Position numbers and translations under genes: made by a program. From Nitrosopumilus sp. (GTDB lineage Archaea > Thermoproteota > Nitrososphaeria > Nitrososphaerales > Nitrosopumilaceae), in the NCBI GenBank assembly GCA_965223425.1, contig OZ245003.1, positions 1,248,001-1,312,000 on the forward strand: a DNA stretch of 64,000 nucleotides, written 5' to 3'. The notes under the pieces are model-generated. The model saw only the letters and a program-made list of their open reading frames with translations. It was not told the DNA's origin and searched no databases. Shown piece by piece: positions 22,781 to 58,128 of this stretch. How positions within the stretch are numbered: position 1 is the first letter of the stretch; every line of letters begins with the position of its first letter.

Positions 22781-22872
22781 GATACAGCGTGTATCAACAA
22801 TTGGCCAAAGAATTAAAACCAACTGCAGCTCTTTTGAACATAGTTAAGATTGAGATACAACGTGTATCAATT
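22781..22872. repeat. Two palindromic GATACA-N3-TGTATC sites (third, degenerate copy at 24182-24204)
   Basis: 22781-22795 gatacaGCGtgtatc; 22854-22868 gatacaACGtgtatc; 22850-22872 matches 24182-24204 at 19/23 nt. Confidence 0.6.
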
Positions 22873-24102
22873 TTCATATGCATAACAATTCATCTCATCT
22901 ATTATGATACTCATGTCATCATGTATGATATTCATGTCCTTGATGAAAGAATTATGTATGTCAATTTGCTCGTTTAGTGATATTCGGATAACTTCTAATT
23001 CCTCATACAGTAGATTTAGAGCATTCCAGTACTGCGTACTTTGATTTGGAATATCATCATATTTTTCATATTCATCAACTAATTCATCATACTGTAATTG
23101 GACTGTCTGTATTTCTATATCACTGTGATCAGCAAAAATTTGTAACTCATCGTATTGTCTTTGTAACTCATCGTATTGTCTTTCTAATTCATCATACCCA
23201 ACAAACGATCCATCAAGTGAGGCAGGTACTATGTATTTCATAGATTCAAAATTATCTACGATTGGCGGGTTTGTCCCATACATTAAATGAGACTCGTCTA
23301 ATATGTGGTCAAAACCAAGAATATGCCCTATTTCATGTGAAACAGTATCCGAAATTCTATCTATGTTATACTGTACAAAATTATTTTTACAATCAAAAGC
23401 ACCCAACACAATAAAAATATCCCCCTTGCCATCAAAGCCATGAGTTTCTGCAAAGCCTACATAATCTCCGTCAAAATGGCTGCTATCTGCTATCACGTGC
23501 CAATGAATTAATAAATCTGCATTATTTTCAACTTGAATAAATTTTAAATCAGGATTAGACTCTTGCCATGCACTTATTCCTTTATACATTCCATGTTTGA
23601 CTATTTCTTGATTTGATACACTAGGTATCATATCATAAGAATATGTTATCTCTTGATTTGATACACTAGGTATCATATCATAAGAATATGTTATCTCTTG
23701 ATTTGATACACTAGGTATCATATCATAAGAATATGTTATCTCTTGATTTGATACACTAGGTATCATATCATAAGAATATGTTGTTTCTATTTCGTACTCC
23801 TCTGGTACGTATTTTTGTGATCCTGACTGTCTGACTGTTGTACTGTAAAAATTATCAGGCACTACAAAGCCTTCTGGTACGTATTTTTGTGATCCTGGCT
23901 GTTTGACATCATCTGAAAAAGATTGAACTTTCAGTATGCCATTATCAATTAACCATTCAATCACCATTCTGAAATCATCACTCCATAAACCAACAGTCGT
24001 CTTAACCCAATCTGGGATTAATTCATCTTGAGCGTTGACTGGAGTTACTACGATACTAGCCAAGAAGACTGCTAGAACAGAAAACAAGTAAACCAGATTC
24101 AA
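22867..24102 (-). CDS. Secreted matrixin (M10-like) zinc metalloprotease with internal repeats
   Basis: Signal peptide, IPDWVK..GLW thaumarchaeal surface domain, HEIGHILGFDH plus Met-turn LMY, C-terminal coiled coil. Confidence 0.9.
   Translation of the reverse strand: MNLVYLFSVLAVFLASIVVTPVNAQDELIPDWVKTTVGLWSDDFRMVIEWLIDNGILKVQSFSDDVKQPGSQKYVPEGFVVPDNFYSTTVRQSGSQKYVPEEYEIETTYSYDMIPSVSNQEITYSYDMIPSVSNQEITYSYDMIPSVSNQEITYSYDMIPSVSNQEIVKHGMYKGISAWQESNPDLKFIQVENNADLLIHWHVIADSSHFDGDYVGFAETHGFDGKGDIFIVLGAFDCKNNFVQYNIDRISDTVSHEIGHILGFDHILDESHLMYGTNPPIVDNFESMKYIVPASLDGSFVGYDELERQYDELQRQYDELQIFADHSDIEIQTVQLQYDELVDEYEKYDDIPNQSTQYWNALNLLYEELEVIRISLNEQIDIHNSFIKDMNIIHDDMSIIIDEMNCYAYEN
23606..23782. repeat. 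45-bp tandem repeat x4 (TYSYDMIPSVSNQEI)
   Basis: Identical unit tcttgatttgatacactaggtatcatatcataagaatatgttatc. Confidence 0.95.
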
Positions 24103-46724: not shown

Positions 46725-47948
46725 TCATTTCTTTTTTCTAATTTGCTGTACTACCATTGGTAAAAATGCACCCACATCAGATACAATTCCTAGTGCTTGC
46801 CATGTTCCTCTGTCCATAAGTTTTGTAACCGTTGGCTGATTAATGTCTACAGCAATCACTTTCACATTTGCTGGAAGCATATTTCCTGTTGCAATGGAAT
46901 GGAGCATAGTTGAAATCATGATGACCATATTTGCATCTTTTAGTACTTTCTTGTATTCACGTTGCGCTTGAACAACATCGGTAATTACGTCTGGCAATGG
47001 TCCGTCATCTCGAATTGAACCTGCCAACACAAATGGTATCTCGTTTTTTACACATTCGTACATTATTCCTTTTGTCAATTTCTTAGTTTTTACCATGTTG
47101 GCAATAGATCCTGCCTTGAATACTGCATTGACTGTATCCATGTGGTTTCGATGTCCATGATATGCCAATGTGGCATCATGAACATTCATTCCTAGTGAGG
47201 TACCGAGTGTGGCATATTCTATATCGTGAACTGCAAGCGCATTACCTGCCAACACCCCATGAACATAACCCAACTTGATTAGCTCAGATACAGCATCATC
47301 TGCTCCTGTGTGTACTATTGCTGGACCTCCAACAATTACAATTTTTCCACCATTCTTTTTTGTGTTATAGATGTCTTCTGCTACTTTTTTGGCAATATGC
47401 TGGGTTGGTCTTTCACTTGAGCTTGAACTTCCCATGAATTCAAACACATTGACCCCTTCTCGTGGACGCTCAGGTGGAATAATCTTGACTCCTTTTTCTC
47501 CCACTACTATTTGGTCTCCTCTTTTCACATCCCTTACAGGCACACAGAATGCTTTACTTCCCTTTACAACTATACATTTGTCCATCATCATATTTTCCAC
47601 CTGAACCCACTTTCCTCTGTGAAAAACTTGTGTGTGGTTGTTTGTTGTACTGTAAAAATTATCAGGCATTACAAAGTTTTTTATGGATTTTTTTAATACA
47701 ACCTCTTTTTGGATTTTAGATACTGCCCCTTCTCGATAAATTGTTTCAAGAATCTCATCCAGATGTTTTTGGTTTTTTCCATTAACAAGCAATCTTGCGT
47801 AGGATTGATCTTTTTTTCTTCTGCCAATGTTGATTTCTTGTACCTGAAATTCTCCTTTTAGATCCATTATTTTATCAAAGATCTTAGTCAAAATCAAAGA
47901 ATCAATTATGTGGCCACTAACTTCGATCTCTTGAGAATATTTGATCAT
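46725..47948 (-). CDS. TIGR00300 / LOR-SDH family protein (ornithine cyclodeaminase-like)
   Basis: GHIIDS, PDNFYSTTN, GNALAVHDIE, LAGSIRDDGPLPD, LHSIATGNMLP. Confidence 0.9.
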   Translation of the reverse strand: MIKYSQEIEVSGHIIDSLILTKIFDKIMDLKGEFQVQEINIGRRKKDQSYARLLVNGKNQKHLDEILETIYREGAVSKIQKEVVLKKSIKNFVMPDNFYSTTNNHTQVFHRGKWVQVENMMMDKCIVVKGSKAFCVPVRDVKRGDQIVVGEKGVKIIPPERPREGVNVFEFMGSSSSSERPTQHIAKKVAEDIYNTKKNGGKIVIVGGPAIVHTGADDAVSELIKLGYVHGVLAGNALAVHDIEYATLGTSLGMNVHDATLAYHGHRNHMDTVNAVFKAGSIANMVKTKKLTKGIMYECVKNEIPFVLAGSIRDDGPLPDVITDVVQAQREYKKVLKDANMVIMISTMLHSIATGNMLPANVKVIAVDINQPTVTKLMDRGTWQALGIVSDVGAFLPMVVQQIRKKK

Positions 47949-49576: not shown

Positions 49577-50113
49577 ATGAGGATTTACACTAAGACAGGT
49601 GATGACGGAAACACCGGTTTGCAAGGAAATTTCAGAATAGCAAAATCCCATCCAAGAATTATATCATATGGCACTGTAGATGAGGCAAATGCTGCATTAG
49701 GCGTGGCACTTGTAAACACATTGGATGAGGACGTGACAACTGTTTTGCGCGATATTCAAAATGAGCTGTTTCTGGTTGGAGCCGACCTCTCAAACCCAGA
49801 TCTAAATGATACAAAAAATAGAGTTACTTTGGATATGGTTACAAAACTGGAGAAATACATTGACAAATTTGAATCTGAACTTCCGCCCTTGAAAAATTTC
49901 ATTTTACCTGGCGGAGATATTGCTGCATCCCAAATACACCATGTTAGAACCATTGTTCGTAGAGCCGAAACTCAAGTCGTTCAGTTGAGTGAAAACGACG
50001 AAATCAACTCAAACTGCATAAAATACCTCAATAGGCTATCTGATTTGTTTTTTGTAATTGGTCGTTTGATCAATAAGCGAAAAGGCACAGATGATGTTCT
50101 ATGGAAGATCTAA
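49577..50113 (+). CDS. ATP:cob(I)alamin adenosyltransferase, PduO type
   Basis: IYTKTGDDG, GTVDEAN, FILPGG, RTIVRRAE, YLNRLSDLFF. Confidence 0.95.
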   Translation: MRIYTKTGDDGNTGLQGNFRIAKSHPRIISYGTVDEANAALGVALVNTLDEDVTTVLRDIQNELFLVGADLSNPDLNDTKNRVTLDMVTKLEKYIDKFESELPPLKNFILPGGDIAASQIHHVRTIVRRAETQVVQLSENDEINSNCIKYLNRLSDLFFVIGRLINKRKGTDDVLWKI

Positions 50114-50150
50114 AGTTTGAACTTATCTTGTTTCAAAAATTAGAATAAAA

Positions 50151-50630
50151 ATCAACGGTGAGCAGAATTATTTGTTTGCAAGTATGGATGATGATGCAGG
50201 ATACTGGCTGGCTAGTGATAGTGCAGACAACAGGTTCCAGCACAATGCAGACAATCTGCCATCCATGACAAAACTACGGGCTGGAAAGAATCCAAGAAAT
50301 TTCACCACTGACGGTTTTTTTTATCTTACATGAAATCCTCCAAGAAGGTTTTTGGAAAAAAAATCAATCATGTCAGACACATTCATCTCAAAGGTTATGT
50401 GAATAACAACAAAATGGAGAGGCTGAGCGGTAAAATTCTAGATCGTGAAAAGGTTTTCAATGGATTAAAGAAGATGGATGCGGCAATACTTGATGGATGA
50501 AAGTTTATTACAATTTCATTAAAAAACACGGTTCATTAAAGGGCAGACCCCTGCAGAGGCCTCGCTTGTTGAGGTAGATGGGGTTAACAAGTGGAAAGCT
50601 ATCACCCAAAACGCTTTACTTAACAAAGAT
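50151..50630 (+). pseudogene. IS6-like DDE transposase remnant (C-terminal half, several frameshifts)
   Basis: NYLFASMDDD, TDG, RHIHLKG, NNNKMERL, YYNFIKKH, TPAEA fragments across frames. Confidence 0.7.
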
Positions 50631-50802
50631 TTATCTTGGAACTTTTATGGGTTTTTTTTAAATTAACATCAAAGTCTGTTCTTCCTTACTGCCTTCCTAT
50701 CAATCCTCAATTAGGATAAACAAGTCTCTCATCGGGTGATATACGTCATCATCCGTCTACGACGAAAGGAGGAAACTTTCAATTTTGAGGGCATAGTCTA
50801 GA

Positions 50803-50911
50803 GTGGACAAGGCGTTCAGATTCGCAGCTGTAAGATCGTGTGAATTTCTGACATCAATGCAAATAGAGGAAAACAGGTGGACAAGGCGTTCAGATTCGCA
50901 GCTGTAAGATC
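50803..50911. repeat. Repeat-spacer-repeat unit (35-bp perfect repeats, 39-bp spacer); CRISPR-like, orphan
   Basis: gtggacaaggcgttcagattcgcagctgtaagatc at 50803-50837 and 50877-50911. Confidence 0.85.
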
Positions 50912-51027
50912 AGGGTTTAAATTCTTCTCTCACCATTCCATAGAAGATCCATATTCTAGGTCACCAAGACACACCAGAACCATGTAAGACAAGCTTTAAT
51001 TCCTCAATCAAATCCATTTTTCTAAGT

Positions 51028-51101
51028 GCCGTGGTAGCTCAGCCTGGGAGAGCACTCGGCTGAAGACCGGGCTGTCGCGCGTTCAAATCCCGCCCGCGGC
51101 A
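51028..51101 (+). tRNA. tRNA-Phe(GAA)
   Basis: Cloverleaf GCCGTGG/CCGCGGC, D arm GCTC/GAGC, anticodon CTCGG-CTGAAGA-CCGGG, T loop TTCAAAT. Confidence 0.95.
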
Positions 51102-51420
51102 CTTGTTTTATTTCTTGTAATCACAAAAATTGGATTGCCTGTTCAAACGAACAGGTAATTTCTTTTCCATATTATGAATCAAAAGCCTTCTGCTAAATCA
51201 TTTTGACCAGAACGCTTTTTGATCTGCACATCCAACTTTGAACCAGTAACCACAGCGACGGATAAGGCCTTGCAGTACATGCCAGAAACGTACAGAAGTT
51301 TATCGCACGCATCCCTGACATACTCGTCATACGTCTGTCCTCGGCCACGCCGAGACTTGGTGCCATAGAACAATACGGGCATTAGAAAAAGCAAGACATG
51401 CTGGTATCAAGTGTTACGTA

Positions 51421-52546
51421 GTGAATTGGATTAACAATCGCTCACAAAACAGACAACATTATTCAACCACAAGATCTAGATCCCAGTGTATGGCAGAATC
51501 CGCATGAAATACAACGATTCTGCAATACCGGCAGACAAAAGATTCCTGTCCGGCGTCTCCAGTGTGCGCCTGCGCAGCATGCAAAAAAAGGAGACAGATC
51601 CCAGGGCCGCAGCAAGGCTGCTGGCATATGCCATGCGCAAGGAGGGCATGTCCATACGCCGGATATGCATGGCCCTCAACAGGTCATATTCCACAGTACG
51701 GGGCTGGCTTGTGCGCGCCGCACAGCTTGGCACCTACGGCAGGTACGACATCAAAAACAAAGGCGCGCCAAACAAGCTCGATCCGGAACAGACAAAGCAG
51801 CTGCGCGCAGACCTGCTGGCAGGCCCGCGCAGTTGCGGGTTCGAGTCCGGAGTGTGGACGGCACCGCTGCTGGCCGTACACATCAGAAAAAAGTTCGGCG
51901 TGCAGTATGCCACTGTCAGCATATATGACATACTGCACAGGATGGGCTTTTCGTGCAGAAAGCCGCGTCCAAAGCACCCAAGTCAGCCTCAGAATCAGAG
52001 AAAAAAGAGTTTAAAAAAAAGCAGGGGAGATAATCCGGAGCCATCCAGACCATACGGTGATTACAGTTGATGAGGCCTCCTTTATCATTGGGTGGAATAC
52101 CAAGAACGGGTGGTACCTCAAGGGCAAGCCCGTCACCACTCCAGTCAGCCTGTCGCGCAAAAGGTTCTACTCGTTTGGGGCGCTGTACGACGGCGGCTTT
52201 GACTGCAGGTTCTATGCCAAGGCCAACAGCTACAGCTTTGTGGACATGCTCGGACACCTGCATCTCAAGCACGGCAAGATCATCGTCTTTCTTGATAACG
52301 CATCATACCACAAGTCAAAGATGGTCAATGATTTTGTCGACTCGTATGACGGCGACATAGTCCTTGTTTACTTGCCCGTGTACACCCCGGAGCTGAATAC
52401 CACGGAGGGGCAGTGGAGGCTGTTAAGAAGGGCCACTGCAAACGTGATGTATGAAAGCACAAAGGTGATGAAGGAATCCATATGGACAATGCTGGATAGA
52501 CGTGAGGTCAAGATAACAAGAATGAGCGGTTATTTATCCTAGTCAC
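51421..52546 (+). mobile_element. IS630-family element with a two-ORF transposase (51486..52542)
   Basis: Imperfect TIR gtgaattggatta / ttatcctagtcac flanked by TA; HTH ORF plus DDE ORF (VDEAS, LDNASYH, YTPELNTTE); slippery tttaaaaaaaag at about 52010 and an apparent extra 1-bp loss near 51980. Confidence 0.88.
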
Positions 52547-52725
52547 TACGGCACCTTCGAGTACGTGCGCCGTACGCTTTCTGAATGCCTAAGAACAGCA
52601 AACCGAACTTGATGTGATAAGGTAATATGTCAGCAGAAAGCTTGTCGTTACAGCAGACTTGATTCACACTATATGAGGGCATTTTGAGTAATTCCTAGTG
52701 TTTACTTTAGGTGTTCAGAAATTCA

Positions 52726-53364
52726 CTAATTCACAATAATTTTTCGCATAGGAACAGAGCCAAAATCATTTAGTTTTCTATCCTTTCCCTTATGTTTGAC
52801 TTTACGGTAATTAATTTTCTTGTCATCAAACAACCAGTTTTGAACTGCAACATATGCATTTTCTTCAAACAGTATGCAATCTTCCTTGGCATATTTTGAC
52901 ATTCTAGTACATAGATTCACTGGAATGCCATAAACATCGTCTTCAGTGTTTGTTCTAATCTTCCAAAGTGTTCCAGATGCAATAGTAACCTTTGTTCGTA
53001 TTCCATCCCCGTGTTTTTTCAGATTTCTTATTACTTTGATTGCACATTCACATGCAAGTCCTGATCCTTTGAATGTGACCAATATTGCATCTCCAAGTTC
53101 TTTGATAGCAATTCCATTGTTTCTTTCTACAATATTACGGCAGATTTTGTTATGCAATAGCATTTTAGTTATTGCCGCAATAGGATCACACCTCATCAAT
53201 TTTGTTGATCCTTTTAAATCAAAATGAGCTACGCTGAAAGTCTTTCTTTGTTTCTTAGAAAATTTCTTCTTGGTTTTAAGATTAGCAACAAATTTTTTTG
53301 CCTTAACAATTTCATCTTTGCAAGTACAACTACTAGAACAAGTACATTTCTTTTTGGATTGCAT
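52726..53364 (-). CDS. Class III adenylate/guanylate cyclase domain protein with a Cys-rich basic N-terminus
   Basis: HFDLKGST, IKELGDAILVTF, DVYGIPVNLCTRM; N-terminal CTCSSSCTC. Confidence 0.88.
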   Translation of the reverse strand: MQSKKKCTCSSSCTCKDEIVKAKKFVANLKTKKKFSKKQRKTFSVAHFDLKGSTKLMRCDPIAAITKMLLHNKICRNIVERNNGIAIKELGDAILVTFKGSGLACECAIKVIRNLKKHGDGIRTKVTIASGTLWKIRTNTEDDVYGIPVNLCTRMSKYAKEDCILFEENAYVAVQNWLFDDKKINYRKVKHKGKDRKLNDFGSVPMRKIIVN

Positions 53365-53368
53365 TTCT

Positions 53369-53656
53369 TTATGCTGACTTTGGTAAGAGATCTATTTGAA
53401 CTCCAAGAGGAGTTTTTAATTTGACTAAATTTTTTATATTTGCAAGATCTCCTTGAATGGCAAGAGAGTACACTTTAAGATCTTTATTATCACAACCACG
53501 TAGATCTGGTTGGTGATTAATTAGACCCTTTTCTTTTATTGGAGTGCCATCAATAATAATATCAAAATTAGAAGAACATTTCCTAATTTTGTTTACAGCA
53601 ATTTTAACATTAGATTCATTATAACCAGTAAATGCTAATTGAATTTGTTTTTGCAT
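53369..53656 (-). CDS. Small protein resembling a divergent ribosomal protein uS10 fold
   Basis: MQKQIQLAFTGYNESNVKIAVNKIRKCSSNFDIIIDGTPI...LANIKNLVKLKTPLGVQIDLL; TTTAAA box about 30 bp upstream; 4 bp gap before the cyclase. Confidence 0.55.
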   Translation of the reverse strand: MQKQIQLAFTGYNESNVKIAVNKIRKCSSNFDIIIDGTPIKEKGLINHQPDLRGCDNKDLKVYSLAIQGDLANIKNLVKLKTPLGVQIDLLPKSA

Positions 53657-53803
53657 TGTATCTTTCACACTTTTATTTTTGATATGTTTAAAGGTAACTA
53701 TTTGGATTTGTGGAGTTGTGTGGGATTTATTTGTAACAATTCGGATTTCTGGAGTGAATTTTGGGGTGCCGAAAGAGATAAAGATCACGGCTAGAACACA
53801 CAT

Positions 53804-55294
53804 GTGATGCCGGCGGAGTTTGATCCTACCCGCGTAGACTGGGACAACCAAGACACAAACTATCTCTTTAAGCATTTCAAATCAGTGTTTGATCAGGAGA
53901 GAAGAGAGAGAAGGTCGTTGGAAGAAAAAGTCAAGCATCAAGGCGACACAATCAAGCAGCAAAATGACACAATCAGGCAGCTGGAAGAAGAGAACAGGCA
54001 GCTAAGGACAGGATCCACAACCCAAAAGCCGGCCAGGAAGGCAAGAAGCTACAATGTGAGAAAATTCAAGGAATATCCGCGGCCAAAAAGCGACAAAAAT
54101 ACCGGGATGCGCGGCAGGGAACAGAAGACTGACATCCCAGTCACAGACCACAGGGACGCAGACATTTCATATTGTCCCGGATGCGGTCTCAGACTTGCAG
54201 ACAGCAGTGGTACCTATTACGACCGCGACATAACAGACATACAGGACGGCAGGGCGCGCCGCATCAGATGGAGCGTGGCGCGCCGCTACTGCAGGAACTG
54301 TAAAACGTCACACTCCGCACGCATACCCGGCACCCTGTCCGGCTCTCAGTATGGAATCACGATAATCTCCCAGGTAGTGCTGATGCGCTGCATGGGAATA
54401 CCGTTTGAAAAGATAACCGACCTATTTGACATGATACACGGGATACAAATCCCGGGTTCAACGCTGGTCTCCATGTGCGAAAAGGCGGCATGCCAGATGA
54501 GGCCAGTCTACGACGGACTGCTTGCAGGGATGATTCACAGGGCCCGTGCCATATGCGGGGACGAGACCGGATGGTTTCTCAACGGACTGCATTACTGGGT
54601 ATGGGTTCTAGTCTCCGCACACGGCGTGATATACCACATATCATCGACGCGCAGCAAGCAGGTGGCAGAGGCACTGGCAGGTGAGTTTGACGGAACTGTA
54701 GTATCAGACTCGTATCTGGCATGGAGTGACGTAGGCCTGCTGCACCAAAAGTGCCTGCTGCACTATTTCAGGGACATGTACAAGACCCTGGAGGAGAACG
54801 GCAGTAACGAGTTTGCCACATTCTTCAGGAGACTGCACGGCATACTCAGGAATGCCATAGACGCACGGGAAAAGTACGACAGTAATGCGGTTCCAGCAGA
54901 CGTCACACAAAGGCTGCAGGACAGGATAGACGCGCTGGCACGGCAGTCATACGACGATGCGGACTGCCGGAGGTACGCAAAAAGGCTCAAAAGGGAGGGG
55001 GATCAGCTGCTGACGTTTCTGGAGCGCGACGTGGAATACCACAACAACAAAAGCGAGAGGGCCCTGAGGATGTTTGCCACCATGCGCAAGGCCAGCTACG
55101 GCAACAGGTCCGAGAAGGGCATATACATCACAGAGACGCTGGCAAGCATATACGCCACATGCAGGATGCGCGGTGCAAACCCGTACAATTTTATCCTGGA
55201 ATACCTTGAGGGCGGCGGCAGCAGCAGAACCGACGGGATTCCCATGGCCTGTCCGGACAAAACTGCGGCAGTCAAAAAGTGTGTCTGTGCCTAA
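53804..55294 (+). CDS. IS66-family transposase (intact)
   Basis: Coiled coil, CPGCG..CRNC, GDETGW, VSDSY, HQKCLLH, HNNKSERALR. Confidence 0.95.
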   Translation: MMPAEFDPTRVDWDNQDTNYLFKHFKSVFDQERRERRSLEEKVKHQGDTIKQQNDTIRQLEEENRQLRTGSTTQKPARKARSYNVRKFKEYPRPKSDKNTGMRGREQKTDIPVTDHRDADISYCPGCGLRLADSSGTYYDRDITDIQDGRARRIRWSVARRYCRNCKTSHSARIPGTLSGSQYGITIISQVVLMRCMGIPFEKITDLFDMIHGIQIPGSTLVSMCEKAACQMRPVYDGLLAGMIHRARAICGDETGWFLNGLHYWVWVLVSAHGVIYHISSTRSKQVAEALAGEFDGTVVSDSYLAWSDVGLLHQKCLLHYFRDMYKTLEENGSNEFATFFRRLHGILRNAIDAREKYDSNAVPADVTQRLQDRIDALARQSYDDADCRRYAKRLKREGDQLLTFLERDVEYHNNKSERALRMFATMRKASYGNRSEKGIYITETLASIYATCRMRGANPYNFILEYLEGGGSSRTDGIPMACPDKTAAVKKCVCA

Positions 55295-55384
55295 AACGCC
55301 GCAACATCGCGCACACATGTATGGGGCTGAGCGGCGTTTTTGCCGATTTTGAACTGTCACGGTATAACGGGGCGTGATTTGTCT

Positions 55385-55494
55385 GTCAAAATAAATCCCA
55401 CACAACTCCACAAATCCGAATTAACGTTCTTGTCCTTTCTGACCTCTTTGCCACATGGTCAAAATAAATCCCACACAACTCCACAAATCCGAAT
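55385..55494. repeat. Repeat-spacer-repeat (37-bp perfect repeats, 36-bp spacer) in the IS66 right end
   Basis: gtcaaaataaatcccacacaactccacaaatccgaat at 55385-55421 and 55458-55494. Confidence 0.9.
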
Positions 55495-55616
55495 AGTTAC
55501 ATTTATTTTGACAGACAAATCACGCCCCGTTATATCGTGACAGTTCAAAATCGGCAAAAACGCCATCCAGCCCCATACCATGTGTTGATGTTGCGGCGTT
55601 TTAAGCACAGACACAT

Positions 55617-57226
55617 TAGACATTATGCACAATTAACATTATAAAATTTTTTGGCATTTCAGAACAAAATAGACATTAGACTTTATGAACAATTGAATCG
55701 TCAAAATTTTTCCGAAAGATTTAGATCCATTTTGATCGCCGCAACAGGTATGGAATCTCCAGAACAGACGATACGCAGACTGCAAAAAGAGCTCAAGCAG
55801 AAGGACAGAGCAATCAAGCAGAAGGACAGAGCAATCAAGCAGAAGGACAGAACAATCAAGCAGAAGGACAGAACAATCAGCAAGCACAACAAGATCATCG
55901 GCTCACTTCGCGAGCAGCTAAGACTTGAAGACAGCCTGTGGAACGTAACCGGAGATGCAGACCGCTTAGAGACTGAGACGGCACTGCTGCACATCAGGGA
56001 GGTGATCCACGGCATACTGCACAACAGCGCAAAGCTTGCGGGAATTACCTCGTATGACCTTGACCAGTTTGACTACACCTGCAACGACTTTGTGGTAGAG
56101 TCAAAGAGGCACAGCAAAGACGCGCCGCTCTTTTCAGAGGACGAAACACCGGATCCAGGAAACCGCTGCCTGCCTGGCCGCAGGTCCGTCCTGCTGCTTG
56201 CGCTGTTCCGCAGGCGCTCAAACGTGACACAGGACGCCCTGGGAGTGCTGTTTGATGTTGACCAGTCCACCGTGTGCAGGTACCTCAAGTTTGCAGATTC
56301 CGTGCTGGCAGGGATCCTGCCTACTGCAGACAGGATGACCCGTCTGGTAAAAAAGGCCGAGACATCAGAGCAGCTAGAGCAGCTAATGCCGGACAGAACC
56401 ATCATAATTGACGGCACCGAGGCGGTGCCAAGGCAGCGTCCGCAGGACAGGGATAAAAGAAAAGACACGTACTCTGGCAAAAAGAAGCGCTTTACGATTA
56501 ACACCACCATAACAACAAACAGGGCAGGGCCTGATACCTGCAGCAGGCAGGTCCTTTGAGGGCGGGACGCACGACCTTACCATGATAAGAGAGGATCCGA
56601 TAGACTTTGGCAAGTGGTCTGAATCCATGATGTACAAAAAAGACACCCCGGAAAAGGACAGGATACGGGTACTTGTAGACAAGGGATACCAGGGATGCCA
56701 ATCACTACGCGGGAATAGCACTTGAGATGCCGGAAAAAAAGAAGCCACGGGCGGAGCTGACACAGCAACAAAAGGACTCCAACAAAAGGATCAGTGCCAA
56801 GAGGGTAAAGGTGGAGCACTCCATTGGAAGAATAAAGCAGTGGGCAAGGATGACAGACCCGTACGACGGCACGGTAGAGGAGTTTCACGAGGAGCTGGTT
56901 GTGTGTACCGGCCTTGCGAACTTTGGTTTGCTGTGGGATGCAAAAAGAAAGCGGCCGTCACTTGATTGTTGATGTATGATACGGGGTGCATGATGCACTG
57001 GAATGGTGCGCACACGTGCGCTTGAATTCTCCCGGATCTGTTGAGTGATCGTATATTTTGTGCCAGACGGGGTTATTTTTTGGACCTGTCTTTGCATCTT
57101 GATGGCTTGCGCCGTAGAAAAAAAAATTTGACGTCATTTACAGAGGGGCTGATAGCAGAGGGAGAAAATCCCGATGGCTTGCGCCGTAGAAAAAAAATTT
57201 GACTGGTCAATTATGCATAATGTCTA
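55617..57226 (+). mobile_element. IS5-family ISL2-like (HTH_Tnp_4/DDE_Tnp_4) element with a frameshifted transposase (55750..56972)
   Basis: 21-bp imperfect TIR tagacattatgca(c/t)aatt(a/g)ac; FDVDQSTVCR, IIDGTE, YSGKKK, DKGYQG, RVKVEHSIGRIK; 21-bp tandem repeat (IKQKDR) at 55793-55879. Confidence 0.88.
57101..57203. repeat. Repeat-spacer-repeat (32/31-bp repeats, 40-bp spacer) just inside the IS5 right TIR
   Basis: gatggcttgcgccgtag(a9/a8)tttgac at 57101-57132 and 57173-57203. Confidence 0.88.
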
Positions 57227-57338
57227 GTATGTCATGATTTGACATACTGGACTAAATGATCGCAATTAGGCTTATTTTATAAAAAAATCATTCTACATAA
57301 TCTTTAAAAGTTACCATGACTTTTGATTTTCGACATTC

Positions 57339-57644
57339 ATGGCTAGAAAAAAAGCTGGAAAAAAGGTTGTAAAAAAGACTGGAAAAAAGGTTGTAAAAAA
57401 GACTGTAAAAAAAGCTGGAAAAAAGGTTGTAAAAAAATCACCTACAAAGAAAACGACAGATAAAACAACAAAGAGTAAAACCGCCAAATCAAAAAAGACA
57501 AAAAATAAAAAAATAAAGGATGAGCCCTTTGATGACATGAGTATTGTTATAGTCGATGATGATATTGAAATTGACCAAGAAAAGGTTAACGAAGAAAGAA
57601 GGGCATACCTAGAAGAAGCAAGATCTCAAGAGGCATCTGACTAA
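57339..57644 (+). CDS. Lys-rich histone-H1-like low-complexity protein with an acidic tail
   Basis: KK(A/T)GKKVVKK repeats followed by an acidic C-terminus. Confidence 0.75.
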   Translation: MARKKAGKKVVKKTGKKVVKKTVKKAGKKVVKKSPTKKTTDKTTKSKTAKSKKTKNKKIKDEPFDDMSIVIVDDDIEIDQEKVNEERRAYLEEARSQEASD

Positions 57645-57676
57645 ATCTTTATCAAATCCGACTACATACACTACTC

Positions 57677-57916
57677 ATGCGTGCATTATGTTTAATCATG
57701 GTAAAACCGGGAAAGATTGATTCTGTTGTTCAAATTTTAAAGAAAAAGCGTAAGGTCATAAAACAGATAATGGTAGTCACAGGAAGAGCAGACATTAGTG
57801 TAATTTTACAAGGAAATATTGACGAGCTTAACAATATGGTGATTGATTTTAAAAAAATAAAAGATATTGTTGCTACTGAAACACTAATTGAAGTAGAGGT
57901 GAATCTGGGTTGGTAA
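57677..57916 (+). CDS. Lrp/AsnC ligand-binding-domain protein
   Basis: MRALCLIMVKPGK...VTGRADI...IVATETLI. Confidence 0.85.
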   Translation: MRALCLIMVKPGKIDSVVQILKKKRKVIKQIMVVTGRADISVILQGNIDELNNMVIDFKKIKDIVATETLIEVEVNLGW

Positions 57917-58128
57917 GGGCCATAATTTTGGTAAAATCTCCAAAAAAACTCATAGCTGCACGGCTTCGGAGAATTACGTCGATCTCAGATTCCTTTCCAA
58001 CAAGTGGGCAATTTGATGCAGTTGCAATAGTTGATGTTGAACAATTGGTTCAAATTAAAGAAATTGCCAATCAAATCCAAAAAATTAATGGCGTGGAAAG
58101 GACTGAAACTATGATTGAAGTTCAATGA
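57910..58128 (+). CDS. Lrp/AsnC ligand-binding-domain protein
   Basis: TSGQFDAVA...INGVERTETMI. Confidence 0.85.
   Translation: MVRAIILVKSPKKLIAARLRRITSISDSFPTSGQFDAVAIVDVEQLVQIKEIANQIQKINGVERTETMIEVQ

Follow-up and report, generated by a model that had tools for sequence, protein, structure and literature searches.

A stretch of 64,000 nucleotides (nt) from the archaeon Nitrosopumilus sp. (assembly GCA_965223425.1, contig OZ245003.1, positions 1,248,001 to 1,312,000 of the forward strand) carries three short units, in each of which a segment of 35 to 37 nt stands on either side of an insert of 35 to 39 nt. We refer to this whole stretch as the window, and coordinates given without a contig name are positions within it. 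Each unit lies in the 3′ tail of an insertion sequence (IS) and resembles a CRISPR array cut down to two repeats and one spacer. The question raised by this locus is therefore what process might have written such units behind three different transposase genes. A first-pass annotation of the DNA had offered three answers, namely off-target integrations by the CRISPR adaptation proteins Cas1 and Cas2, guide RNAs borne by the IS elements, or artefacts and coincidental rearrangements.

We consider it very probable that the units are off-target spacer integrations, or ‘neo-CRISPR’ scars, made by Cas1–Cas2 of the type I-B CRISPR-Cas system (with Cas4) that resides in the same genome. The first of the proposed answers is thus the one that is supported, by the array-like geometry of the units, by empty sites and by inserts copied from the chromosome; a genome-wide class of such units and an intact cas locus were likewise observed.

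Anatomy of the three units

A direct-repeat search of the window recovered all three units where they had been annotated, with periods of 74, 73 and 72 nt, and a sequence comparison confirmed that their repeats are mutually dissimilar. Unit 1 consists of a 35-nt segment that starts with GT (50803-50837), a 39-nt insert that is unique in the genome (50838-50876) and a second, exact copy of the segment (50877-50911) at a spacing of 74 nt. The 35-nt repeat occurs at only these two places genome-wide. Unit 2 is formed by a 37-nt segment of the subterminal end of an IS66-family element, again with a GT start (55385-55421), a 36-nt insert that is also unique in the genome (55422-55457) and an exact second copy at a spacing of 73 nt (55458-55494).

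Unit 3 is less regular, in that a 37-nt segment whose reverse complement starts with GT (57096-57132) and a 36-nt second copy with two mismatches to the first (57168-57203) enclose a 35-nt insert (57133-57167). As detected, its direct repeat spans 33 nt at 91% identity (57096-57128 and 57168-57200, spacing 72 nt). The exact cores, 57101-57132 and 57173-57203, describe a unit of 32 + 40 + 31 nt, which becomes 37 + 35 + 36 nt when two mismatches are allowed.

A genome-wide class of units

The source genome (G000) measures 2.64 Mb in two contigs, one of which, here called C1, holds all of the units described in this study. Both contigs were scanned for exact direct repeats of at least 24 nt at every offset from 30 to 200, with the two CRISPR arrays of the genome excluded. 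Offsets that are multiples of three were occupied mostly by coding tandem repeats. Among the other offsets (40 to 200), 16 of 34 repeat pairs fell at 71, 73 or 74 (binomial p = 1.7e-16), and every remaining offset that is not a multiple of three held at most one pair. After removal of low-complexity sequence, offsets 66 to 80 yielded 34 rows, of which three were dropped. Two of these (C1:1628505 and C1:1628617) are pieces of a 63/66-nt coding tandem repeat, and the third (C1:1429891) has a period of 69, a 23-nt repeat and a 46-nt middle that matches C1:1700566, flanks included. This left 31 units, or 29 independent ones when a unit borne by an IS5-type element and present in two extra copies is counted once.

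Each of the 29 has its own sequence, the duplicated segment is mostly 34-39 nt long and encloses an insert of 33-39 nt, and no unit has more than two repeats. Their periods extend from 71 to 77 nt (72 in eleven units, 73 in six, 74 in six, 71 in three, 75 in two and 77 in one). A fourth member of the class lies within the window at 23801-23907, where a unit of 35 + 37 + 35 nt with a period of 72 stands in frame within the open reading frame (ORF) 22867-24102 of the minus strand and gives the encoded protein a duplication of 12 amino acids (aa) flanking 12 new residues. Read by eye, this ORF also has a HEIGH zinc-protease-type motif.

The first-pass annotation had placed each focal unit downstream of a transposase. 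Their location is as described, but the link to transposases is largely incidental, given that the units form a genome-wide class with an enrichment beside multi-copy DNA that is only about two-fold. A multi-copy flank (at least three copies) accompanies 17 of the 29 units, as compared with 189 of 600 random positions (31.5%; Fisher p = 0.003), and the other 12 units have no such flank, several of them being located inside ordinary genes. Three units behind transposases are unremarkable because the genome is so rich in IS elements. The flank scored at the random positions was 300 nt in length, and one IS family is represented by at least 35 near-identical copies. Relatives in the genus have genomes of 1.2-2.2 Mb, compared with the 2.64 Mb found here.

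As a control, the same scan was applied to a 1.56-Mb contig of another genome of the genus (G012), in which it detected no CRISPR array. It returned no units, where 18 would be expected at the density of the source genome (Poisson P(0) = 1.5e-8). Outside the multiples of three, G012 gave a single match, an 85-nt tandem repeat, and its matches at 72 and 78 were short-period coding repeats.

The resident CRISPR-Cas system

The statement in the first-pass annotation that no cas genes are present holds for the window but not for the genome, which has a complete type I-B locus. CRISPR1, the near end of which lies 52-58 kb from the focal units (about 52 kb beyond unit 3), comprises 74 repeats of 36 nt separated by spacers of 34-38 nt, and its periods are 70 (22 cases), 71 (21), 72 (17), 73 (11) and 74 (2). 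Intact cas4, cas2 and cas1 genes adjoin this array, and their products exceed the family cut-offs with no stops in the genes (Cas1, 208.6 bits; Cas2, 46 bits; Cas4, 82.7 bits). The locus continues with a 557-aa ORF that matches no family, a Csh2-like cas7, cas5b, cas3 and cas6. CRISPR2, at C1:1682473, has seven repeats of 36 nt and spacers of 35-38 nt. A lone CRISPR2 repeat, slightly truncated, was observed at C1:1629292 on the minus strand, 53 kb from that array.

The dimensions of this system are close to those of the units. The duplicated segments of the focal units (35, 37 and 36-37 nt) approximate the resident repeat of 36 nt, and their inserts (39, 36 and 35-37 nt) approximate the resident spacers. 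For units whose borders are fixed by empty sites, the duplication measures 36-38 nt and the insert 34-37 nt.

Filled and empty sites in IS elements

Unit 2 is located inside the right end of an IS66-family element of the single-ORF type (53694-55500, plus strand; ORF 53804-55294), which has terminal inverted repeats and matches the Pfam family DDE_Tnp_IS66 (E = 1.4e-31). Eight right ends of this element exist in the genome, and at seven of these a single 37-nt copy of the segment runs straight to the six-base terminus; the segment is doubled only in the window copy. The first copy within unit 2 stands without the final 6 nt of IS66, and the second continues into the true terminus (55495-55500), the six bases of which are common to all seven other copies. 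Both borders are expected of an intact end that has received a 36-nt insertion with a 37-nt duplication.

Unit 3 sits just inside the right inverted repeat of an IS5-type element (55617-57226, plus strand) whose gene is split (55651-56559 and 56727-56972) and matches Pfam DDE_Tnp_4. The unit 3 repeat has matches at six IS5-type right ends of the genome, of which three are doubled around an insert and three have a single copy without one. The unit 3 insert is also found, at 94-95% identity, in the IS copies at C1:532128 and C1:252386, where it is 37 nt long with point differences; in the former copy, whose unit is at C1:532092, it is enclosed by 36-nt repeats with one mismatch. Because the same insert is present in three copies, and because an intact terminal inverted repeat follows outside the unit, these data indicate one integration event that was then spread by the marked IS. 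The first-pass annotation had regarded an invariant spacer belonging to the element as a sign against its proposals. Unit 3 literally has such a spacer, and a single integration followed by IS transposition explains it.

These counts bear equally on the proposal that the units are functional parts of the IS elements, serving either as mini-array or scaffold guide RNAs for a trans-acting nuclease or recombinase, or as reiterated transposase-binding sites. This proposal draws its appeal from the placement of all three units in 3′ tails of IS elements, from the overlap of the unit 2 repeat with the IS66 terminal inverted repeat, from the retention of unit 3 in three IS copies whose terminal repeat is intact, and from the two-fold enrichment beside multi-copy DNA. 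Against it, only one of the eight IS66 ends and three of the six IS5-like ends are filled. Reiterated binding sites would be expected at the ends of all active copies, whereas at seven IS66 and three IS5-like ends the segment is single and the insert missing. The 12 units without a multi-copy flank, several of them in ordinary genes, are also difficult to reconcile with a function in transposition, as are repeats that differ in every unit and inserts that elsewhere are mostly random pieces of the chromosome.

The comparison with IS-encoded guide RNAs leads to the same judgement. Omega RNAs (of TnpB and IscB elements) and bridge RNAs (of IS110) are conserved in every copy of their element and are paired with those proteins. 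The window likewise offers structured non-coding DNA at a transposon end, 3′ of a transposase gene. Unlike those systems, however, the transposases here are DDE types (IS66 and IS5/DDE_Tnp_4) rather than TnpB, IscB or IS110, and most copies are without a unit. Moreover, a search of 50000-58000 against Rfam returned nothing but a tRNA-Phe. With these results in mind, we judge it highly unlikely that the units are working parts of the IS elements, and the guide-RNA answer of the first-pass annotation is not borne out.

Empty sites elsewhere and effects on genes

Beyond the focal units, empty sites exist for seven of the remaining 26 independent units, as revealed by paralogues in six cases and by homologues in one. 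The unit at C1:2466835 has 35 empty paralogues (some 100% identical in the flanks), that at C1:105005 has 20 and that at C1:1565093 has nine, with smaller numbers for C1:275655 (three) and C1:1951927 (one). The unit at position 280165 of the same contig has two, which are only 72-75% identical. The case established by homologues is the unit at C1:2401614, which lengthens a 1112-aa helicase of the SNF2/PLD type by 25 residues, 13 of them new and enclosed by a 12-residue duplication. Between two conserved anchors, this helicase has 36 residues in the source genome as compared with 3-13 in all 108 of 108 full-length homologues.

The units also show signs of selection through a bias in reading frame. 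Periods divisible by three are found in 13 of the 29 units versus 17 of the 73 in the array (p = 0.03). Of six cases where an open frame of at least 800 nt runs through the unit, five have periods of 72 or 75 and the sixth, with a period of 74, lies in an IS gene. Units with periods of 71, 73 and 74 reside mostly in IS elements, pseudogenes and intergenic DNA.

Origin of the inserts

Matches to another place in the chromosome were found for 17 of the 29 inserts. Fifteen of these extend over 33-38 nt at 94-100% identity, and the two weaker ones comprise 30 nt at 90% and 23 nt at 96%. Single-copy sequences make up 14 of the sources, and the other three belong to IS families. The insert of the fourth unit in the window, for example, has its protospacer at 47643-47676 on the plus strand, 24 kb away (a 34-nt match at 97%, 33 of 34). 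In contrast, no self match emerged for any of the 73 CRISPR1 spacers (Fisher p = 5e-12): their comparison with their own genome produced nothing longer than 19 nt and a longest exact run of 17. This difference shows strong purging of self spacers from real arrays.

Four of the 14 single-copy sources lie within 32 kb of one another (C1:141995, 148241, 162991 and 174134), and the region C1:141995-174134 may be a hot spot of prespacer capture.

Target choice and position

The duplicated segment has GT at one end in 11 of the 29 units, all three focal ones included, relative to a background of 10.5% (p = 1e-4), and the CRISPR1 repeat has a GT start in either orientation. At the GT end, the first 6-12 nt show a slight likeness to one terminus of the CRISPR1 repeat (p = 0.008-0.03), and over their full length the duplicated segments resemble it at background level (11.7 versus 11.3 matches).

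The non-coding DNA around the focal units had also been described as hairpin-rich. This description fits unit 2, where the IS66 end and an adjacent inverted fragment of 115 nt form a palindrome with the unit at its apex and the restored site has a fold z of −4.0. It does not fit the remainder (z = 0.0 for unit 1), and a hairpin preference is not general among the sites (mean fold z −0.20, p = 0.32), the strong hairpin being confined to unit 2. The fragment (55501-55615, minus strand) is an inverted partial copy of the IS66 right end, that is, the reverse complement of 55280-55396, with inverted repeats of 78 nt at 95% and 29 nt at 97%. Before the 73-nt unit was added, the palindrome at 55280-55615 had arms of about 117 nt and a centre of 31 nt, and it is cut off at 55616 by the IS5-type element.

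With regard to position, a post hoc test found 8 of the 29 units (p = 0.0015) and 5 of the 14 single-copy sources (p = 0.003) within 50 kb of either array, where 8% would be expected. The region C1:1706815-1730910, 24 kb from CRISPR2, carries six units in 24 kb together with two or three of the sources. Its large ORFs have no Pfam match except for a weak ArdC-like N-terminal domain, and the region may be an integrated mobile element.

Weighing the evidence

Several observations weigh against the assignment of the units to off-target integration. To begin with, unit 1 has no empty site: none was found among paralogues, and a 29-nt core of its repeat gave 0 matches both in a collection of genome contigs and in one of metagenome contigs. 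Protospacers for the three focal inserts were not found in the genome, viral contigs, family genomes or phage records. Specifically, exact cores of the inserts had 0 matches each in IMG/VR viral contigs; a search of 120 family genomes with the complete unit 1 and unit 2 inserts, at a tolerance of three mismatches, retrieved them from the source genome alone; and a blastn comparison with 50,697 phage records yielded a single match for unit 1, at chance level (E = 0.6), and none for units 2 and 3. Furthermore, several inserts elsewhere have one to five letters at one end that are unmatched to the source.

The likeness of the sites to the CRISPR1 repeat is weak, and the test for clustering around the arrays was a post hoc one, with six of the units concerned in a single 24-kb stretch. 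The mean period of the units (72.9) exceeds that of the array (71.3) by 1.6 nt (p = 8e-7), and given this difference and the unmatched letters, the products do not replicate array events exactly. No consistent protospacer-adjacent motif (PAM) triplet was seen by eye in the flanks of the 14 single-copy sources, although cas4 is present, and the whole CRISPR1 array had no match in the phage records, so that its targets furnish no PAM reference. Finally, the inverted IS66 fragment next to unit 2 does not sit easily with this assignment, and none of the assembled contigs from four public sequencing runs spans a whole unit.

The last two of these points could also be cited for the view that the units arose as errors of assembly or sequencing, or by chance rearrangement, be it slippage during replication or a pair of partial IS ends enclosing old flanking DNA: unit 2 does lie within an odd palindromic junction of IS fragments. 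The contigs break in an informative way, however. Those of run X1 (depth about 800-890) and of run X3 from another study (depth 2.9) both end at 50832, and an X1 contig resumes at 50882. Contig graphs of this kind use a word length of 31, and a 35-mer in two contexts splits such a graph, which accounts for the break at unit 1. Contigs of two studies therefore break just where the duplicated 35-mer predicts. In addition, an X1 contig of single-copy depth (849) covers 55535-55718, the junction between the inverted IS66 fragment and the IS5-type element.

An origin of the unit 2 insert as old flanking DNA was suggested by its reverse complement, which by eye continues the reading frame of the ORF to the left of the IS66 element. 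This candidate, in which the insert would be the start of that ORF, was rejected on the grounds that no relative among the 120 family genomes has the insert and that the ORF starts at an ATG of its own (53656); a single integration moreover explains the two odd borders of unit 2. As for artefacts in general, unit 3 is present in three diverged copies, the offset statistics, the in-frame bias in genes and the constant duplication of 36-38 nt are unlike assembly errors or slippage, the helicase homologues all lack the insertion, and the same scan of G012 found no units. An artefactual or coincidental origin is not supported by this evidence, and we hold it to be most improbable.

One X1 contig of low depth (22.5, as compared with about 800) leads from 56303 to the earlier position 56272 through 39 intervening letters, which corresponds to a period of 71 inside the gene of the IS5-type element. 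This form is missing from the assembly, and by eye the 39 letters look like the CRISPR2 repeat in reverse complement. Either a recent, polymorphic unit or DNA of another organism in the sample could lie behind this contig, and we regard it as a lead and not as evidence.

The longer period of the units and the unseen PAM could also point to a different integrase with a long stagger, for which the candidates would be a casposase-like Cas1 homologue or the product of a second cas1-like sequence. Indeed, a second Cas1-family match exists at C1:1379849-1380046. This match is partial, covering model positions 218-283 only, in a 131-aa frame, and the insert lengths of 33-38 nt are those of array spacers. 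Casposons generate target duplications of about 14-15 bp, which counts against a casposase-like enzyme. Furthermore, the genome of G012 encodes a Cas1-family ORF but has neither array nor units. Another integrase thus appears to us very unlikely to have made the units. The Cas1-family ORF of G012 (C1:886493-887311 of that genome, minus strand; 344 aa, 98.6 bits) may itself be a casposase.

A model for the formation and survival of units

We infer that Cas1–Cas2 is the responsible enzyme and that the units are not expressed, and on this basis off-target integration could proceed as follows. In a true array, the leader and the repeat guide integration by Cas1–Cas2. Away from the array, integration would take place at low frequency and with little sequence preference beyond a GT at one of the cuts and a faint resemblance to one repeat end. 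The integrase would carry a prespacer of about 34-38 nt and make two staggered attacks on the target at a distance set by its repeat-length ruler, here 36-38 nt as compared with the canonical 36. Gap repair would then double the DNA between the cuts to produce copy, insert and copy, with a period of 71-77 nt.

Because their repeats are arbitrary, the units would presumably not be processed by Cas6 and would be inert, which would explain why self inserts are tolerated in them but not in the array. The adaptation complex would sample self DNA in either case, with self spacers being lethal or purged in a working array and harmless in a unit. Selection would further filter which units survive, such that frame-shifting units last in IS elements, pseudogenes and non-coding DNA and those in intact genes are nearly all in frame. 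The occurrence of units in three transposon tails could then be attributed to selective survival in a genome of which about one third is repeated DNA. Unit 3, in this scheme, would have been written once into the IS5-type element, inside its terminal repeat, and the mobile IS would have carried it to three places.

Taken as a whole, the chromosome is probably a natural record of misses by an adaptation integrase, with at least 29 events, most of which wrote self DNA, that cluster around the two arrays and persist at sites where they are harmless. The X1 variant of low depth is a hint that such integration continues.

Relation to known systems

Neo-CRISPR events were reportedly described in 2018 by Nivala, Shipman and Church (Nat Microbiol 3:310) in a laboratory strain of Escherichia coli that overproduced type I-E Cas1–Cas2, where they were rare and were detected by deep sequencing. 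As in E. coli, the units described here consist of a spacer-sized insert surrounded by a duplication of approximately repeat length, located off the array and attributed to the adaptation integrase. They differ in that the chromosome of a wild-type archaeon, as assembled, holds 29 independent units, in that the system is of type I-B and free of engineering, and in that most of the units have identifiable self sources, some are in frame within genes and one has been spread by an IS. A passage in a paper that cites the E. coli work calls the evidence beyond E. coli ‘circumstantial’ and refers to two other species. Our literature search, which was short of a full survey, found no report of a natural genome with this many such units. 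The units are best described as natural off-target integrations of the same kind as the E. coli neo-CRISPR, in a different system and at a scale for which that search gave no precedent.

In vitro, the Cas1–Cas2 proteins of Pyrococcus furiosus (PMC6698737) and those of Sulfolobus islandicus (PMC9456107) carry out off-target integration with limited sequence guidance, and the authors propose that such events could be harmful in vivo or could seed new loci. The products in those studies were formed in the test tube on plasmids or oligonucleotides, as opposed to the chromosomal units reported here. The stem-loop preference reported for S. islandicus Cas1 is not general among our units.

With canonical arrays and with the mini-arrays or solitary repeat units of viruses and mobile elements (for example PMC6858448), the units share the order repeat, spacer, repeat and the dimensions of 35-37 nt for repeats and 35-39 nt for spacers. 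Mini-arrays have recognizable CRISPR-family repeats that the host Cas proteins can process, whereas the repeats of the units are arbitrary local sequence unrelated to CRISPR1 or CRISPR2. Judged by their unrelated repeats, the lack of any Rfam match and the presence of just two copies each, the units are predicted not to be functional arrays or mini-arrays.

These distinctions have a practical side, since two-repeat units beside transposases may be mistaken for mini-arrays or guide RNAs by CRISPR finders and by readers of raw sequence. Demonstrations of off-target spacer integration come mainly from overproduced E. coli Cas1–Cas2 and from test tubes. The roughly thirty events mapped in this one genome are of interest with regard to its natural frequency, its cost and its capacity to seed arrays. 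Many of them have known sources and several have empty sites for comparison, and they offer a direct view of the integrase ruler on non-CRISPR DNA (36-38 nt), of a weak GT preference, of the sampling of self DNA (17 of 29 units versus 0 of 73 array spacers) and of a possible local bias near arrays. If the chromosome is indeed such a record of misses, then mis-integration by Cas1–Cas2 is a real mutational force in the wild, one that makes in-frame additions of 24-25 residues to proteins, marks transposons that then spread the mark, and leaves repeat-spacer-repeat seeds for possible new arrays.

Surroundings of the focal units

The assignment of a transposase gene 5′ of each unit is supported by Pfam for the IS66 and IS5-type elements, but the ‘IS6-like’ label given to the first is weakly supported. 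The 40-aa remnant in the window has no Pfam match, and a paralogue with 78% identity scores 24.2 bits to DDE_Tnp_IS240, for which the cut-off is 27. This degraded remnant and unit 1 lie together in an 871-bp segment (50115-50985, plus strand) that is missing from relatives, such that in three of them (G007, G009 and G003) window position 50114 is joined directly to 50986. At this locus, the relatives retain only the tRNA-Phe side. Within the segment, 50146-50631 is 73-78% identical to the paralogue with the weak IS240-type DDE match.

The 871-bp segment is followed in the 3′ direction by tRNA-Phe, an IS630-like element, a cyclase-like gene on the minus strand, the IS66 element, the inverted IS66 fragment and the IS5-type element. 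The surroundings of the units are thus mobile DNA piled up in an AT-rich host background. The product of the cyclase-like gene (52726-53364, minus strand) is 212 aa long and has a catalytic domain of the adenylate/guanylate-cyclase type (PF00211, E = 1.4e-6). The gene is preceded by a 95-aa ORF with no family match (53369-53656, minus strand), and the IS66 element is located just upstream of the pair, which could form a small defence-type operon.

Similar tandem repeats of 21 nt (7 aa) are present in the 5′ parts of the transposase genes of the IS5-type element (55772-55897) and the IS66 element (53931-53993), and related 63-nt periods appear among the Tandem Repeats Finder (TRF) matches elsewhere in the genome.

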